A stretch of 53,102 nucleotides of DNA from a virus: the IMG/VR virus record IMGVR_UViG_3300050501_000425. One strand, written 5' to 3'. Positions 9,193-21,972 of this stretch are shown in pieces. Below the pieces are notes generated by a model that saw only the letters and a list, made by a program, of their open reading frames with translations, did no database searches and had not been told where the DNA came from. A program made the position numbers and the translations under genes. Each line of letters opens with the position of its first letter. Positions within the stretch are counted from its first letter, which is position 1.

Positions 9193-9471
9193 CCATGTCA
9201 TGTCAACTCCTTTCCGGTGCCCATGGGAGAGCACCATGACACCGCGCCGTCGGGTCCTGGATCGCCAGGAAACGCTTTGTGTCATGGTGCTCATGGTGAA
9301 CGGCTTCGCTGCCGCTCAGCCCGAACATCAAGCTCGCTTCGCTCGCTTGATGAAGGCGCAGGTACGGCTCCCCGGTCCATGCCGCCCAGAGTGTCGAAGA
9401 AGCAACATGGTGGATCATGACCGTCCTTGCCCGACAAAGACAGAACTAGGAAAACGGGTTTGACGCCTTCG

Positions 9472-9543
9472 TGCCCTCGGCTGGGTTCGAACCAGCGTCC
9501 TCGCCGTGCTCTTGGCGCGCTCATCCCACTGAGCTACGGGGGC
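9472..9543 (-). ncRNA. tRNA-like RNA (72 nt) with a defective anticodon arm
   Basis: Minus sense: GCCCCCG UA GCUC AGUGGGAU GAGC ... GCUGG UUCGAAC CCAGC CGAGGGC A. D and T arms are canonical. The acceptor has one C.A mismatch. The anticodon arm is only a 4-bp stem (CGCC/GGCG) with loop AAGAGCAC and no U33. No CCA is encoded. Confidence 0.6.
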
Positions 9544-12593: not shown

Positions 12594-12725
12594 TGACTCG
12601 GTGGCACAGTGAACATCCAGGCGAAGCCCGTGATCCGTTGTCTGGATGCTGGATCCACTTAGTGCCACCGGTTTGTTACTAGCATCGGGGCTACGGTCTC
12701 GACCGCGCCGGGGCGCCGAGCTACG

Positions 12726-12798
12726 CTGACCCAGCAGGACTCGAACCTGCAACCTGATGATTAACAGCCACCTGCGCTGCCGATTGCGCCATGGGTCA
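12726..12798 (-). tRNA. tRNA-Asn (anticodon GUU)
   Basis: Full cloverleaf drawn by hand. Acceptor UGACCCA/UGGGUCA, U8, D arm GCGC-AAUCGGCA-GCGC, anticodon arm GGUGG-CUGUUAA-UCAUC, variable AGGUU, T arm GCAGG-UUCGAGU-CCUGC, discriminator G. No CCA is encoded. Confidence 0.85.
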
Positions 12799-13028: not shown

Positions 13029-13172
13029 GACCTCAGAGTTCAAGGGCTGTCTCGGAAATGGGAGCGGACTCGAACCGCCAACCTTCCGGTCTCAACCGGA
13101 CGCTCTACCAATTGAGCTACCCCGATGAATTGTTGGTATCGGGAAGTATCCGAAACATTCGCACCTGAGATC
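13029..13172 (-). ncRNA. Y RNA-like module F (normal-order tRNA-like cloverleaf inside the conserved stem)
   Basis: GAUCUCA-GGUGCGA-AUGUUU-CGGAUACUUC ... GCUC-AAUUGGUA-GAGC G UCCGG-UUGAGAC-CCGGA AGGUU GGCGG-UUCGAGU-CCGCU ... CUUGAACUC-UGAGGUC. The closing stem is 7 bp with one G.U. Confidence 0.7.
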
Positions 13173-15848: not shown

Positions 15849-15998
15849 TTACATTCTTTCGGGCATCTCCAGTGGCATCAGAAGGGCCGCCAGGATGCCC
15901 CCGGCACCGGCCAGCATCCAGGCCGGTCGTTGCACCAGCAAGCCCAGGCACAGGATCACGCCGCAGATGGCCAGCACCACGATCTTGAGTGAACTCAT
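15849..15998 (-). CDS. Small 2-TM membrane protein (49 aa)
   Basis: MSSLKIVVLAICGVILCLGLLVQRPAWMLAGAGGILAALLMPLEMPERM. ATGA-coupled to the Ro60 stop. Confidence 0.55.
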   Translation of the reverse strand: MSSLKIVVLAICGVILCLGLLVQRPAWMLAGAGGILAALLMPLEMPERM

Positions 15999-17566
15999 CA
16001 GAACGGCCACTGCCCGGCGGCACGGCGCTCCAGCACCGGCAGCAACTTGAACGCCTGGTCAGTCAACCCGCCGATGGTGATGCGGGTCGGGGTTCCCGAC
16101 TCCATGTGCCCCACCTTGTACCCGGCCAAGTTGAACGTGATCACCGGGATGTGGGCCGGGACTGCCGCTGCCACATCACGATAGGTGTGATAGTTGGCCT
16201 GCTCGTCGGTGAGGATGACCACCCGATCGTGCGCCCTGAAATTGGTGCTCACCGCCGCCTCGGTGGCCGTACCCCCGTTCTGGAAGTAGCCACGGCGGAA
16301 CGCCTCCAGCATCACCAGCAGCGATGCCCCCCTGGCCAGCGGGAACACCTTGGAGTAGTTGGAGTACGAGACCACGTCGGCGTGCTCACACCGCTGCGAA
16401 AGCGCCAGCCCGAAGATGGCCGCCGCGTCCCAGCGCCGCAGTCCGCTCTTGTCACTCATGCTGTCGGCCATCGAGCCCGAGGTGTCGATCAGGATCAGGG
16501 TGCGACCGGCGAACTGCGGGATGTTGTTCAGCGACGCCTGGAGCCCCTGCTCAAGTGGCAGGTGCCAGCGCACGTTGGACACAGCCCGGAAGGCCGACAA
16601 GAACCGCATCGGCAACTGACGGGATCGGGCCACTTGCTCCGGGTCACCGAGGCGATCAGCCACCAAGGCGTAGGCGTTGTGGCCCACCCCGGCCTCATCG
16701 AAGTTGCGCAGGTTGCGCAGCAGGGCCATGTAGCCCATGGTCGGGATAAGCGCCTCCCACAGATCCTTCTTCGGAATCTTGGAACCAACCAGGGACAGCA
16801 CGTCCTCCCACGTCATCCCGGCAGCCCGAAGGGTTCCGGGGTCCAGGAACATGTGCTGCCCGTAGTCCTTGGCGGCTGCGTCACGAAGGAAGGCATTCTT
16901 GTGGATCATGGTCAGTGACGACGGGATGCCCTCGCGGCCGTGGCGCCGGTCGATCAGATGCTTGAACAGCACATCCTGGCCCAGCTTGTCCGGGGACGCA
17001 TGGGTCAGCTCAAGCACATCACCGAAGCGGACACCATGAGACGCCGTGTCGTACTTGAGGGTGTTGTACTCGTTGTAAAGACGCGTCGCGGCATCAGCGA
17101 TCCCGCGCTTGATCGGCTTGGGAATCTGCTGGCCTGGATAGGCAGCCTTCCAGTAGCCGATCGCCTCACCGGGCTCGTCGGCACGTGCCAGCACCGAGTT
17201 GACGATCCGACGGCCACCAGGAAGGTTGGACTTCACCATGGCGCAGGCGGCCTCGATCGCGCCCACCAGGGAGGCGGTGCGCATGTTGGCCTCGCCGCGA
17301 AGCCACGGTAGGAAGCGCCCCATCCATTCGGGATCGGTGCGGGCCACCTCGTGAACCAGCGTCTTGAAGCGGGCGTCACGGGCAACCCCGGTCTCATAGA
17401 AGGTGTCCATGCCGACGAAGTTGCTCACCGCCAGCAGGAACAGCTCACCCTTGGCGTCACGGGTGAACCCGGGCGCCCGGTTTCCGGTACGCGCCAACGG
17501 GTCCGGGGTGGACACGATGGGCTGATTGATCGGGAAGCCCTTGTTGGGCTTGTTGAAACGGCTCAT
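15998..17566 (-). CDS. rsr: Ro60-related protein (TROVE domain plus C-terminal vWA domain)
   Basis: 522 aa. The HEAT-like TROVE region has MGYMALLRNLRNF and RQLPMRFLSAFRAV. The C-terminal vWA has MIDAS LILIDTSGSMAD. RBS is GAGAGGAA. Confidence 0.85.
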   Translation of the reverse strand: MSRFNKPNKGFPINQPIVSTPDPLARTGNRAPGFTRDAKGELFLLAVSNFVGMDTFYETGVARDARFKTLVHEVARTDPEWMGRFLPWLRGEANMRTASLVGAIEAACAMVKSNLPGGRRIVNSVLARADEPGEAIGYWKAAYPGQQIPKPIKRGIADAATRLYNEYNTLKYDTASHGVRFGDVLELTHASPDKLGQDVLFKHLIDRRHGREGIPSSLTMIHKNAFLRDAAAKDYGQHMFLDPGTLRAAGMTWEDVLSLVGSKIPKKDLWEALIPTMGYMALLRNLRNFDEAGVGHNAYALVADRLGDPEQVARSRQLPMRFLSAFRAVSNVRWHLPLEQGLQASLNNIPQFAGRTLILIDTSGSMADSMSDKSGLRRWDAAAIFGLALSQRCEHADVVSYSNYSKVFPLARGASLLVMLEAFRRGYFQNGGTATEAAVSTNFRAHDRVVILTDEQANYHTYRDVAAAVPAHIPVITFNLAGYKVGHMESGTPTRITIGGLTDQAFKLLPVLERRAAGQWPF

Positions 17567-18325: not shown

Positions 18326-19189
18326 TCATTCAACCACAAATACCCCCTGCCCCTGACGGCCTTCGACCACGCCGGTGGCCTTGAGGATCAGGATGGCTGA
18401 GCGTACGGATCCGTAGCTGGCCTCGAACTCTTCTCGCAGGGCGCTGGTGCTGGGAAGTTTGCCGTCGGGATAGGCGCCGGAGGCGATCCGCTCGCGCAAG
18501 GTGTCCACGATGATCAGATACTTGAAGTCCGTCATAGGCAACACAGTAGACCATGGTGCTAATGTGAGCACATGGGGCTCGATCGGACCGAGAAGATCTT
18601 CACTTTCGGGCCACCCTCTCTCCAGCCTCCCAAGAAGGGTGCGATAGGAAACATGACACCTATGATCCCTTGACCATTGCGCAACTGTTTTCTTCTCACC
18701 ATTTATCGTTACCCAGCGATTGGTGGTCTTGTTGTTCATGTTTTCACTGCGCGTAACCCAGCGACAATTCTGTGGCCCATAGTTGCCCGTAGTGTCTATT
18801 CGGTCAATCTGTAGACCATCGACGAATCCGTTGGCTAGTGCCCATTTCCTGAATTCCTCAAAGCTCTCTCGCCATTGGCGGATGACCTTTATGCCTCGGG
18901 CGCCGTAATATTTATATGCGCTGCTTGAGGGGGTGTGGCATCTTCCTTTCATGCTTGCCCATGCCTTATACAGGGGAGACCAGCGCCCATTGGCGGCATC
19001 CCCATGCTTCCTTTGTCTCATGGCCGCGAGATCCCGCTGTAGGCAGCCACAGGACTTACTCTTCCCGGACCTGAGCGCATGTCGGGCTACCGCGCGTCTT
19101 GTGCCACAGACGCATATGCATTCCGAGTGGCGTGGCCTTCCCGTGGCTAGTCCCACCACGGTCCATCGGCCAAATTCGGAAGCGACCAT
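18326..19189 (-). CDS. Nuclease-associated/HNH-type DNA-binding module fused in frame to a GntR-type winged HTH
   Basis: YKAWASMKGRCHTPSSSAYKYYGARGIKV...LQIDRIDTTGNYGPQNCRWVTRSENMNNKT, followed without a stop by MTDFKYLIIVDTLRERIASGAYPDGKLPSTSALREEFEASYGSVRSAILILKATGVV (GntR HTH). ATG 19189 was chosen as the start. Confidence 0.6.
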   Translation of the reverse strand: MVASEFGRWTVVGLATGRPRHSECICVCGTRRAVARHALRSGKSKSCGCLQRDLAAMRQRKHGDAANGRWSPLYKAWASMKGRCHTPSSSAYKYYGARGIKVIRQWRESFEEFRKWALANGFVDGLQIDRIDTTGNYGPQNCRWVTRSENMNNKTTNRWVTINGEKKTVAQWSRDHRCHVSYRTLLGRLERGWPESEDLLGPIEPHVLTLAPWSTVLPMTDFKYLIIVDTLRERIASGAYPDGKLPSTSALREEFEASYGSVRSAILILKATGVVEGRQGQGVFVVE

Positions 19190-19259
19190 GGGCGAAGTAT
19201 ACAAGCAGTAAATTGCATCGTAGACTATGACATCTAGGATGGGGATGGTCAGGTTGGGC

Positions 19260-21581
19260 ATGTCGCTGAAGCAGCGGGTTGCGGCGATGCCCCGTGCCCA
19301 GAGGATGGACTTCCTGCAGTCCCTGGACCCCGCCATCCTGGACATGATCGCCAGGGAGGAATGGTTCTGGGTGGCCCGCCCGGAACAGATGCCGCCCAAG
19401 GGCGACTGGTCCATCTGCCTGATGCTGGCGGGCCGGGGCTTCGGCAAGACGCGCTCGGGGGCCGAGTGGATCGTGCAACGGACCCTGGATCATCCCTATG
19501 ACTCCTCTGGGTTTCCCACCGAACGCCTGATCATGGCCTACAACATTTCTGACGCCGTGGCCTCATGCGCCGAGGGTCCCTCGGGGGTGCTGCGGGTGTT
19601 GCAGCGCATGGGATTTTCCGAGCTGGGAAAGTCCCGCCGGGTCGATGACCCCACCAAGATGTACACCTTCACCAAAAGCCCCAAGCCTTATGTGCGCTTG
19701 CTCGAGACCGGCTCGGTCATCCACTTCACCGGCGCCACAGTGGACGCGGCCCGGTCCAAGAACCTGGCCGATGTCTGGTGCGTGGCCGAAGGTGAGCCAG
19801 TCCTGACCGAGCGCGGCATGGTGGCCATAGAGCGGGTGCTCCCGGGTGACAGAGTTTGGACGCAGACGGGATTCAAGGAGGTTCTGCAATCCGGGCGTAC
19901 CGCTGAGGGCAGGGAGGTCTTGCGGATTGTCACCACCGAGGGGGAGCTTCGAGTAACCCCGGACCATGTGGTGTGGGCCAATGGCGGCTGGATCCGGGCC
20001 GACCGGCTTGAGGCTGGCGATAGTATGGCTACATGTCTGCCTCAAATGGACCTGTGCCCAGCGAAGAGCCAGCCTATCAGCGATGGGACAGGGAGTCCTG
20101 GTTCTTCAACAAGCGCAAGGGATACTACTACAGCCGAGACGGGTTCCTTCTCCACCGAGCCGTCTGGATCGCTTTGCACGGACCGATTCCCGAGGGATTC
20201 GATGTCCATCACCGGGATGGGAAACGGTGGAATTGCGACCCAGCAAACCTTGAGCTATTGCCTCATGGAGAGCACATGCGTCTCACGTGGCAGCTGCGTA
20301 CCGACGCCGACAAATATGACAGCTCCGGCCGGTCCCAGCGGTCCAGTGAGGGATTGCGGCGCATGTGGGCCAACCGGCAGCCCCGGGCAGTCCTTTGTGC
20401 CGAGTGTGGCAATGAGTACCTGTCCACCGGAATGCGGGCCAAATGGTGCTCGGACGCATGCCGGAAAGCGGGATCGGCCAGGCTTTCGCGGAACAAGCGT
20501 GCTCAGCGTAATCAGGGAACACCGGCGAGCTGATGTCTACGATTTGACGATCGCCGATGCCCATCATTTCTTCGCGGGGTCGGCGCTTGTCAAGATCCAC
20601 AACTGCGACGAGCCCATAAAATGGGCCAATCCCGAGGAAACCTGGCGCGAGGGCATCCGACCGGCACTTCGGGCCGACATCCCCGGGGACAAACCCAGGG
20701 CGCTGGTGACCACCACCCCCAAACCGATCCTGTTGCTCAAGAACTGGGTGTCCGAACCCCGGCGGTGGAAGGTCGTCATCATCCGGGGCAGCACCTTCGA
20801 CAACATGATCAACCTGTCTGAGGATGCCGTCGAGGAGCTGCGGGAAACCTATGAGGGCACCGCCCTGGGCCGCCAGGAGCTGTACGGCGAGCTTCTCGAT
20901 GATGTGTCCGGCGCCCTGTTCAGCTTCTCCGTCATCCATGCCAACCGGGTGGAGATCGGCCCGGAGAAGGTGGCCCACCGCACCGTCGGGGTGGATCCCG
21001 GCCTGACCGGTGATGAGGACGGCGACGAGATGGGTGTCATCGTGGCCTGCCGGGACCACAAGGACCATGCCTATGTGATCGCCGATGAGACCACGAAGCT
21101 GGCCGGACGCGATGCGGCACTGCATGCCTGGCATGTCTATGCCCGCTATGGCGCCGACACCCTGGTCTATGAGTCCAACCTGGGCAAGGCCTGGATGCAC
21201 CAGGTGTTCACCGACGCCTTCAGGGAACTTCAGCGCTCCGGCTTATTCCCCACTGAAGTCATCAACCCTCCGCTCGTGCCCGTCTTTTCAAATCAGGGGA
21301 AAAAGCTGCGGGCTGAGCCCGTGGCCATGCGCTATTCGCAGGGGCGAGTGCATCACATCGGCACCTTCGACAAGCTCGAGACCCAGATGCTCACCTTCGA
21401 TCCTTTGTCGTCCAAGGCGTCCCCGGACCGCCTGGATGCCCTCGTCCATGCGGTCCGGCATCTGATGGATGGTGAGCGCAAGCGCTCCCGGATCCTGTCG
21501 CCTTTGGGTCTGCCGGTACCCGAACTCGGCTACAACCCGGTGGGCACCATGCGGACCATGGGTGAATTCGGGATCGGATGA
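19260..21581 (+). CDS. terL: Terminase large subunit, interrupted by an intein
   Basis: N-terminus ...EEWFWVARPEQ..., Walker A LAGRGFGKT, Walker B region ADVW|CDE restored after intein removal. The C-terminal nuclease region has GVDPG...DEMG. ATG 19260 is preferred within ORF 19227..21581. Confidence 0.85.
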   Translation: MSLKQRVAAMPRAQRMDFLQSLDPAILDMIAREEWFWVARPEQMPPKGDWSICLMLAGRGFGKTRSGAEWIVQRTLDHPYDSSGFPTERLIMAYNISDAVASCAEGPSGVLRVLQRMGFSELGKSRRVDDPTKMYTFTKSPKPYVRLLETGSVIHFTGATVDAARSKNLADVWCVAEGEPVLTERGMVAIERVLPGDRVWTQTGFKEVLQSGRTAEGREVLRIVTTEGELRVTPDHVVWANGGWIRADRLEAGDSMATCLPQMDLCPAKSQPISDGTGSPGSSTSARDTTTAETGSFSTEPSGSLCTDRFPRDSMSITGMGNGGIATQQTLSYCLMESTCVSRGSCVPTPTNMTAPAGPSGPVRDCGACGPTGSPGQSFVPSVAMSTCPPECGPNGARTHAGKRDRPGFRGTSVLSVIREHRRADVYDLTIADAHHFFAGSALVKIHNCDEPIKWANPEETWREGIRPALRADIPGDKPRALVTTTPKPILLLKNWVSEPRRWKVVIIRGSTFDNMINLSEDAVEELRETYEGTALGRQELYGELLDDVSGALFSFSVIHANRVEIGPEKVAHRTVGVDPGLTGDEDGDEMGVIVACRDHKDHAYVIADETTKLAGRDAALHAWHVYARYGADTLVYESNLGKAWMHQVFTDAFRELQRSGLFPTEVINPPLVPVFSNQGKKLRAEPVAMRYSQGRVHHIGTFDKLETQMLTFDPLSSKASPDRLDALVHAVRHLMDGERKRSRILSPLGLPVPELGYNPVGTMRTMGEFGIG
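19779..20603 (+). mobile_element. Intein (275 codons) in the TerL Walker B region
   Basis: Starts CVAEGEPVLT, contains TPDHVVW, and ends ALVKIHN followed by +1 Cys (CDEPIKW). Confidence 0.8.
20033..20533 (+). CDS. HNH homing endonuclease ORF nested out of frame inside the intein
   Basis: +2 frame relative to terL. Contains AVWIALHGPIPEGFDVHHRDGKRWNCDPANLELLPHGEHMRL plus CAECG...CSDAC. Confidence 0.75.
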   Translation: MSASNGPVPSEEPAYQRWDRESWFFNKRKGYYYSRDGFLLHRAVWIALHGPIPEGFDVHHRDGKRWNCDPANLELLPHGEHMRLTWQLRTDADKYDSSGRSQRSSEGLRRMWANRQPRAVLCAECGNEYLSTGMRAKWCSDACRKAGSARLSRNKRAQRNQGTPAS

Positions 21582-21651
21582 GGCGACAAGCTGGCAGGGC
21601 CAGGAGATCTAGTGATAACATGCCGACCTTTTTGCTGATACCTTTATCTGC

Positions 21652-21972
21652 ATGATCTACCTCGTTGCCTTTGTCGTCCTGGTGCTGGCGACTGCCCGGC
21701 TGACCAGGTTGATCTGCAGGGACGACATCACCGCGCCCTTGCGACTGGCCATTGATCGCAAGCTGGGGGAGAACTCCTTCGTCTCCAGGTTGATCTGGTG
21801 CCACTGGTGCGTGGCGGTCTGGGTGTCCTTGGGCGCCAGCAGTTTCGCCATGCAGGCGCTTTACACCTTCGGGCTCATCTCGCCCAAGGCGGCGGTCCTT
21901 TCCTGGCTCCTGCTCATCCCGGCCAATGCGTATGCGGCTGCCTGGGTCATTGACAAAGAGGGTGGCGACTAA
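21652..21972 (+). CDS. DUF1360-like membrane protein
   Basis: LATARLTRLICRDDITAPLR...CHWCVAVW with three hydrophobic segments. Confidence 0.6.
   Translation: MIYLVAFVVLVLATARLTRLICRDDITAPLRLAIDRKLGENSFVSRLIWCHWCVAVWVSLGASSFAMQALYTFGLISPKAAVLSWLLLIPANAYAAAWVIDKEGGD

Follow-up and report, generated by a model that had tools for sequence, protein, structure and literature searches.

The large terminase gene (terL) of an uncultured virus, recorded in IMG/VR as IMGVR_UViG_3300050501_000425 with a stretch of 53,102 nucleotides (the window), probably carries a mobile intein whose homing endonuclease has a gene of its own, written in frame +2 across the centre of the intein. According to this model, ribosomes translating terL would pass through the endonuclease gene in the terL frame and thereby make a 144-residue disordered tether, rich in S, T, P and G, between the two halves of the HINT domain, which would fold, splice by the class-1 route (Cys1, TxxH, His-Asn and a +1 Cys) and restore the Walker B motif of TerL. 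Separate initiation at a conserved internal ATG at 20033, which like the starts of several other genes of the window phage probably does without a Shine-Dalgarno (SD) sequence, would produce a free I-HmuI-like HNH/zinc-ribbon nuclease of 166 amino acids (aa). In a mixed infection this nuclease would nick or cut intein-less terL near the Walker B codons, and repair would copy the intein together with the HNH gene into the cut allele (homing). As to its origin, a free-standing phage HNH gene most likely invaded a mini-intein, and the invasion may have been survivable because the +1 frame of the HNH gene, which is the terL frame, is intrinsically poor in stop codons in this hydrophilic family.

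The host gene and the intein consist of the following parts:

19227..21581, + strand: terL, the large terminase gene including the intein (Pfam Terminase_6N and Terminase_6C; 639 homologues)
19428..19451, + strand: Walker A motif or P-loop (AGRGFGKT, with the core GRGFGKT)
19779..20603, + strand: class-1 intein of 275 codons (CVAEGEPV...LVKIHN, then Cys) in the Walker B motif LADVW/CDE (the slash marks the insertion point)
19779..20042, + strand: N-terminal splicing (HINT) half, intein residues 1-88 (AlphaFold, Foldseek)
20043..20474, + strand: linker read through in the terL frame, intein residues 89-232, S/T/P/G-rich, predicted to be disordered and not conserved as a protein
20475..20603, + strand: C-terminal splicing half with blocks F and G (DVYDLTIADAHHFFA ... 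LVKIHN), from its fold and motifs
20604..20606, + strand: +1 Cys codon of the C-extein, the splice nucleophile

In the window terL is one uninterrupted open reading frame (ORF) of 784 aa (the gene caller placed the start of the protein, P0001, at the ATG at 19239) and is not broken into two ORFs that each hold an intein half. Its Pfam matches are Terminase_6N, Terminase_6C and Intein_splicing, the latter with scores of 27.7-31.6 that lie below the gathering score of 35.8, and a search with full TerL returned the 639 homologues. The insertion lies between the Trp and the Cys of Walker B (LADVW-C-DE, from 19764 onward) and is missing from most of 120 listed TerL homologues. It begins with the Cys nucleophile, carries TxxH in block B and ends in DVYDLTIADAHHFFAGSALVKIHN, followed by the +1 Cys, so that the C-terminal His-Asn and the extein Cys (...KIHN/C) are both in place as in class-1 inteins. 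The residues C1, T60-x-x-H63 (TPDH, 19956..19967), H274 and N275 are invariant in the eight aligned sequences. Removal of the insertion gives ADVWCDEPIKW, identical to the junction of the intein-less relative P0005, and the intein-less junction (L024 or P0005) reads GCCGACGTGTGG followed directly by CTCGACGAG at the nucleotide level. The insertion is thus confirmed as a class-1 intein at the Walker B motif of terL. Since Walker B is essential to TerL and the catalytic residues are intact, we infer that the intein splices.

Within the intein, the following features belong to the nested gene:

20033..20533, + strand: nested ORF of a putative HNH homing endonuclease, 166 aa, ATG to TGA, in frame +2 of terL (Pfam HNH_3, PHROG 15471, AlphaFold, match to I-HmuI)
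20147..20275, + strand: HNH catalytic core (LLHR...HH...N...H; H59, H60, N72 and H81 invariant)
20396..20461, + strand: Cys4 zinc ribbon of the HNH protein (C122, C125, C139 and C143 invariant)
20021..20035, + strand: upstream TAG, a stop in the HNH frame four codons ahead of the conserved ATG; the terL frame reads S-M-A-T-C
20475..20533, + strand: true dual-coding stretch, in which the HNH tail (KRAQRNQGTPAS, then the stop) lies over the first strand of the C-terminal splicing half (SVLSVIREHRRA)

The nested ORF lies between splicing blocks B and F, on the same strand as terL and at an offset of +2. It matches Pfam HNH_3 with E=9e-17 and 60.8 bits against a cut-off of 24.8, as well as PHROG HNH families including PHROG 15471, and contains the motif HGPIPEGFDVHHRDGKRWNCDPANLELLPHGEH, followed by CxxC...CxxxC. 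One further Pfam match, to NinG (E=0.018), did not reach its cut-off, and the Pfam scan of this ORF gave neither an Endonuclease VII nor a LAGLIDADG family. All H-H-N-H and Cys4 residues that are invariant in alignments of 9 and 13 sequences are kept in the window, where the ORF is intact, and free-standing homologues are present in cultured phages. The nested protein would be an HNH_3 or I-HmuI-like homing endonuclease that cleaves the element-free allele. The initial annotation had placed an intein in Walker B whose excision would give ADVW-CDEPIKW, had called for a comparison with intein-less TerL alleles, and had described a low-complexity middle in the terL frame, open throughout, over an HNH and zinc-ribbon protein in the +2 frame. 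Each of these points was borne out: the junction ADVW/CDEPIKW is that of P0005, the HNH_3 match and the zinc ribbon fall at 20033..20533, S, T, P, G, A and C make up 65% of the middle compared to 35% of the exteins, and the terL frame has 0 stops across the HNH gene.

Structure prediction agrees with this reading. In the AlphaFold model of the intein, translated in the terL frame, residues 1-88 and 233-275 are all-beta and mostly have a per-residue confidence (pLDDT) above 90 (block means of 92-96 for residues 1-80 of the N-terminal half, and of 75 for residues 81-90), while residues 89-232 have a pLDDT of about 33 and no secondary structure. With Foldseek, the two halves superposed on the mini-inteins of DnaX, RecA and DnaB with a probability of 1.00 and a target-normalised template modelling (TM) score of about 0.8, which is the HINT fold of class-1 inteins. 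Confidently predicted HINT halves around a disordered middle thus describe the modelled terL-frame product as a mini-intein with a 144-residue disordered tether. The nested HNH protein was modelled from a 13-sequence alignment with a pLDDT of 83. Its best neighbour in the PDB is I-HmuI (1u3e; probability 0.98, E=3e-3), but with a TM score of only 0.32 over 151 columns, and I-HmuI is also its best sequence-profile match (E=0.033).

The nested layout is shared by a family of relatives. The search with full TerL gave intein-less proteins of about 500 aa, five proteins of 756-771 aa with the insertion and two of about 650 aa. A homologous HNH ORF occupies the intein's +2 frame in each of the five long relatives (L001, L002, L004, L005 and L006; 44-70% overall protein identity to the window), where the terL frame is free of stops and the third frame has 8-18. 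A search with the HNH protein, using a 5-sequence alignment, yielded eight IMG/VR loci, seven of them distinct as L016 is near-identical to L005, and two Logan contigs, all with the nested layout; L013-L015, L017-L019, L021 and L022 were counted from this route, and L016 and L020 were set aside as near-duplicates of L005 and L019. Together with the window, the 13 further distinct loci make a family of 14, drawn from Logan, ENA, NCBI and IMG/VR, and the layout is kept in relatives with 45-84% extein identity. In 14/14 members the terL frame has 0 stops in the overlap, whereas the third frame has 3-19.

In a codon alignment of six family members, amino-acid identity was 45-70% in the HNH frame, compared to 24-40% in the terL frame and 22-39% in the unused third frame, and pairwise nucleotide differences at HNH codon positions 1/2/3 were 0.35/0.32/0.58. 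From these identities and codon-position differences it follows that purifying selection in the overlap acts on the HNH frame only, and that the terL frame is merely kept open. The frame that terL uses is intrinsically stop-poor for this hydrophilic HNH protein, with 1-5 stops expected compared to 7-37 in the other frame, and this probably explains which insertions survive. A genome-wide poverty of stops in the +1 frame was considered and rejected: long ORFs of the window genome, in a list contaminated by spurious GC-rich ORFs, have on average 2.8 (+1) and 3.0 (+2) stops per 100 codons, and the bias is specific to the sequence of the HNH family. Selection for disorder in the S/T/P/G-rich linker was likewise rejected, as permuted HNH codons give the same composition (z of about 0-2); because synonymous permutation reproduces it, the low complexity of the linker is a by-product of the HNH protein sequence.

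Conservation also extends to the start of the nested gene. The nested ATG is kept in 14/14 loci, and the terL-frame codon before it ends in A, at a site that is synonymous for terL, in all eight loci inspected. In L005 the terL-frame Cys has become Trp, with the nested ATG retained. Conserved layout, frame-specific selection, the conserved ATG and the predicted folds together support the proposal of the initial annotation that a separately framed HNH gene lies in a splicing domain resembling a mini-intein. The dual-frame constraint that was part of that proposal stood only in part: stops are avoided and about 20 codons at the 3' end are dual-coding, but the constraint is otherwise weak, the linker composition following automatically from the HNH sequence. 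Real dual coding is confined to the start region, where the ATG lies in S-M-A-T-C, and to this 3' end, where the HNH stop TGA lies inside GCTGAT, the Ala-Asp of block F.

The distribution of alleles is what a mobile element would leave. P0002 and P0004 have internal deletions of 119 and 113 codons, respectively, which keep both frames and remove the HNH core, and by their sequences they may be taken as mini-inteins in the making. At the +1 position, intein-less alleles have Leu, Met, Ala or Cys. Those with Cys (ADVWCDE) are P0005, P0006, P0021, P0023-P0025, P0030, P0032, P0034, P0036-P0038, P0040 and P0042. Since they group with intein-bearing alleles in a neighbour-joining tree of the exteins, a crude tree built on identity distances and carrying no support values, their +1 Cys suggests a scar of precise intein loss. 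P0017, with the intein, and P0084, intein-less with Met at +1, are 97.1% identical in their exteins, which points to recent mobility. The closest relatives of the window TerL among the matches listed (85-88% identity) are without intein, and in one close intein-less relative, L024, the gene order around terL matches that of the window over the stretch of about 7.5 kb examined. Taken together, the sporadic distribution, HNH-deleted alleles, intein-less alleles with a putative scar and near-identical alleles with and without the intein outline a classical homing cycle, and are indirect signs that the element-free allele is cleaved and that the element spreads by homing.

Further insertions were seen in related terminases. 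Homologous units of intein and HNH gene are inserted at three different points of a 4-residue span in Walker B, namely W/CDE in the window, LDE/CVKW in L014 and LDE[IV]/CKW in L013, L015, L018 and L019, and at all three the extein +1 residue is replaced by Cys. A LAGLIDADG-type intein is present at the P-loop of TerL (GK/A[LV]AL...HN/[ST]) in P0035, P0111, L014 and L022; in the last two, it occurs beside the Walker B intein in a single terL. In the distant relative L023 (1-2202), whose HNH protein is 224 aa long and 35% identical, two terL-frame stops lie inside the HNH overlap, and the gene caller gave an N-terminal terL piece, the HNH gene and a C-terminal terL piece. L023 may represent a fractured terL resembling a split intein or an assembly error in a 3.3-kb contig.

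Several observations weigh against a functional, mobile nested gene in the window. Permutation of synonymous HNH codons predicts only about 1.5 terL-frame stops for the window, so that its stop-free terL frame is by itself statistically unremarkable (P(0) = 0.13-0.15). Across the family, 1.0-3.1 stops are expected per locus and the log10 P(0) values sum to about -17, a sum that overstates the significance because the sequences are related but treated as independent and six loci were found through full-length, intact TerL; hence, the nested arrangement is significant only through its conservation across the family and not from the window alone. The identities of intein and HNH protein (about 45-60%) plateau and only loosely track extein identity, a pattern that fits horizontal transfer but also fast evolution, the two being not clearly told apart. 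As regards expression, no convincing SD sequence precedes the ATG at 20033, the best candidate being GGCGA 13 nucleotides (nt) upstream with a duplex of -3.8 kcal/mol; no sigma-70-like promoter was found inside the terL gene, nor was an internal terminator; and a predicted local hairpin of -28 kcal/mol includes the nested ATG. In L006 a stop follows the third HNH codon, indicating that an intein can remain after its nested gene has been inactivated. Internal initiation on the terL mRNA, at the ATG at 20033, would still be the most economical model: terL itself and the next downstream gene (ATG at 21652) likewise have no SD sequence, and in the distant phages L010-L012 the nested starts are preceded at 7-8 nt by AAGGTG, GGAGGG or AAGGAG.

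These points lend some weight to the view that the nested HNH gene is a silent relic, in which case the window element would be functionally a mini-intein with a junk linker, inherited vertically and giving rise to no HNH protein. The lack of an SD sequence and of a promoter, the early stop in L006 and the persistence of the intein in P0002 and P0004 after loss of the HNH core would all be expected of a relic. We nevertheless consider this unlikely, since the window ORF is intact with all its invariant residues, purifying selection across the family acts on the HNH frame alone, the ATG has been kept where terL would tolerate a synonymous change, and recent mobility is indicated by the two alleles that are 97% identical yet differ in the presence of the intein.

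A different route to the HNH protein would be programmed -1 ribosomal frameshifting, by which an N-extein-IntN-HNH fusion and no free protein would be made. Relative to terL, the HNH gene is read in the -1 frame in all the cases seen, the published Endonuclease VII-like and dnaX examples included, and the window start without SD sequence would be accounted for. Frameshifting is, however, very unlikely because the TAG four codons before the ATG closes the HNH frame and the 12 nt between them (TATGGCTACATG) hold no slippery heptamer, any candidate slippery site being separated from the ATG by a stop; stops lie just upstream of the ATG in L004, L005 and L006 as well, the ATG itself is conserved, and distant homologues have good SD sequences before their nested starts.

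Equally slight is the chance that the nested HNH protein is an accessory nuclease of DNA packaging, like the HNH proteins that aid terminase in cos cleavage in HK97-like phages. Its location inside a terminase gene and the presence of a second HNH-like gene just upstream could be read in this way, and HNH genes adjoining terminase genes are reportedly common in phages. However, the closest relatives, with 85-88% TerL identity and the same gene order, lack both intein and nested HNH gene, P0002 and P0004 have deleted the HNH core, HNH is seen only inside the intein in this TerL family, and the I-HmuI-like HNH_3 family is typical of homing endonucleases.

Two remaining explanations have a negligible probability. 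An in-frame HNH intein shifted by two compensating indels near 20030 and 20500, the outcome that the initial annotation had named as its refutation, would suit a nested ORF whose length of 501 nt divides exactly by three and whose position is just that expected of an in-frame endonuclease domain, but sequencing error is excluded because 13 further independent relatives share the layout, the 14 independently assembled loci having offset, ATG and stop region in common while differing at 32-47% of nucleotides, and the offset recurs in four finished GenBank phage genomes and, in the window as well as in L004, L005 and L006, stops shortly upstream of the ATG close the HNH frame. A group I intron with an I-HmuI-type HNH ORF, for which I-HmuI-like HNH_3 endonucleases are classic cargo in phages, is contradicted by the absence of any Rfam family match in 19000..21700 even at E<=1, by the open host frame in all relatives, and by insertion flanks that carry all intein splicing blocks and are predicted to fold as a HINT domain.

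The reading of a nested, separately translated HNH gene in a terL intein is extended by finished phage genomes. With tblastn, the HNH protein mostly found free-standing HNH genes in GenBank phages, and in four phages, Tetrasphaera phage TJE1, Acinetobacter phage Highwayman, Rhodobacteraceae phage LS06-2018-MD07 and Clostridium phage phiCDHM19, the match fell under a terL annotation. All four hold a homologous HNH_3 ORF, again in frame +2, within an intein that interrupts terL elsewhere, at a site in the nuclease domain. No stop breaks the host frame for 170-305 codons, compared to 13-36 stops in the third frame, and for the two AT-rich phages the probability of 0 stops is <0.001 each. No earlier mention of inteins in TJE1 or phiCDHM19 was found in the literature searched. 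The window itself had no close cultured relative in a blastn search of phage genomes, which gave short terL matches only, and its nearest cultured TerL is about 35% identical.

An out-of-frame intein endonuclease is not unprecedented, and the window is a new example with a different endonuclease family. In inteins of actinobacteriophages, an Endonuclease VII-like (IPR004211) homing endonuclease was described in 'frame 3', the terminase large subunit being among the hosts of such non-canonical inteins, and invasion by free-standing endonuclease genes was proposed (Gosselin, Arsenault and Gogarten, bioRxiv 2025). We confirmed the +2 offset on the Keitabear intein of that study. These inteins and that of the window are alike in having the endonuclease between the splicing blocks, on the same strand and at an offset of +2, with an open host frame and an unstructured linker rich in T, A, S and P. 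They differ in the endonuclease, which is HNH_3/I-HmuI-like with a zinc ribbon in the window, in their hosts, which are cultured PhagesDB phages whereas the window lineage is uncultured, and in the intein sequences, which are unrelated beyond the HINT fold; the nested protein of Keitabear (CxxC...DHDH...LLCNDCN) belongs to another sequence family than the window HNH. Since the published nested endonucleases are of other families, the architecture is shared with the window and the endonuclease lineage is not.

A cyanobacterial dnaX intein with a LAGLIDADG homing endonuclease in the +2 frame (Phillips et al., bioRxiv 10.64898/2026.09.14.751524), where the out-of-frame dnaX endonuclease is credited as first proposed by Gorbalenya (1998), resembles the window in the +2 ORF inside the intein, in low omega in the endonuclease frame with a relaxed host frame over the overlap, and in the coexistence of full, mini and intein-free alleles with a sporadic distribution; there, however, the host is a cellular gene and the enzyme LAGLIDADG, compared to phage terL and HNH here. 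The ShiLan domain, an HNH concealed in another frame of DNA methylase genes of mycobacteriophages (Arsenault et al., Genes 2025, PMC11855218), also combines an out-of-frame HNH with an open host ORF and a disordered in-frame translation, and likewise has no obvious ribosome-binding site, SD-independent initiation being proposed there. In contrast to the window insertion, which is flanked by a complete intein and presumably removed, ShiLan has no detectable splicing domain and stays in the mature protein.

Split inteins are reported from fractured genes with a free-standing homing endonuclease gene between their halves (Dassa et al. 2009, as cited in later work). Such genes share with the window an endonuclease that is a separate gene at the endonuclease insertion point of the intein, and the distant relative L023 looks like one of them, whereas the window host frame is uninterrupted and its intein contiguous (cis-splicing) and not split. 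Canonical in-frame HNH inteins and I-HmuI have the catalytic family in common with the nested protein, which in the window lies outside the intein polypeptide; I-HmuI (PDB 1u3e) is encoded in a group I intron, none of which is detectable in the window. The window case is thus set apart by its HNH_3 family, its uncultured lineage, its breadth across phyla and the fact that one family contains every stage of the cycle.

Some features of the surroundings were recorded beside the intein. In L021 (3001-4609) and L022 (3001-4549) the gene caller gave the nested HNH gene and a 3' terL fragment separately and left the 5' part uncalled, the terL frame being uninterrupted. Between a GntR-family gene and terL in the window lies the second HNH-like gene (18560-19200, minus strand, running into 18326-18535; PHROG 374, E=2e-57), which continues in frame into the GntR ORF with no stop between; Pfam detects only GntR on this minus-strand ORF, and PHROGs find its N-terminal part HNH-like. 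This place is taken up by no more than about 70 nt in L001 and L024 and by an HNH_3 gene of 240 aa in L022. The second gene looks like another mobile endonuclease insertion beside terL. Upstream of terL, a TROVE/Ro60-like protein with a vWA domain is encoded at 15998-17566 (minus strand; Pfam TROVE, E=6e-19) and is also found in L001, L002, L021, L022 and L024. Near a normal tRNA-Asn (12725-12798), ARAGORN reported two tRNA-like genes whose anticodon loops are abnormal (9471-9543 and 13054-13127, minus strand), and these two could be Y-RNA-like tRNA mimics that partner Ro60. The terminase of Microbacterium phage Pumpernickel (H47; NC_073468.1, 27353-29458) matches intein-less TerL in two pieces over 2.1 kb, which suggests that it holds another insertion, possibly an intein.

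Inteins are thought to gain homing endonucleases by invasion of the splicing element ('splicing first'), and direct intermediates are rare. Several of the proposed stages may here be seen together in a single gene family: an unbroken intein whose endonuclease has its own frame (the window), a terL split by stops with a free-standing endonuclease (L023), endonuclease-deleted mini-inteins (P0002 and P0004), and intein-less alleles with a Cys scar. Out-of-frame architecture is extended from Endonuclease VII-like and LAGLIDADG to I-HmuI-like HNH enzymes and, beyond actinophages and cyanobacteria, to phages of Proteobacteria and Firmicutes. Gene callers miss such nested genes or fragment terL, as in L021 and L022, and surveys of in-frame inteins would score the middle as 'unknown linker'. 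The +2 offset is constant in the 14 relatives, in the four unrelated phages with another terL site, in the published Endonuclease VII-like inteins and in the dnaX intein. One may speculate, although we regard this as doubtful, that out-of-frame nesting is a recurrent, selected expression design, in which endonuclease synthesis would depend on translation of the late terL mRNA and be held down by it, the internal start being weak and placed in a translated, locally structured region, and in which only the +1 frame of the endonuclease gene could serve as a harmless disordered tether. If that were so, the unit of intein and HNH gene would be an ancient cross-phylum lineage, able to move between neighbouring codons and between terL domains.

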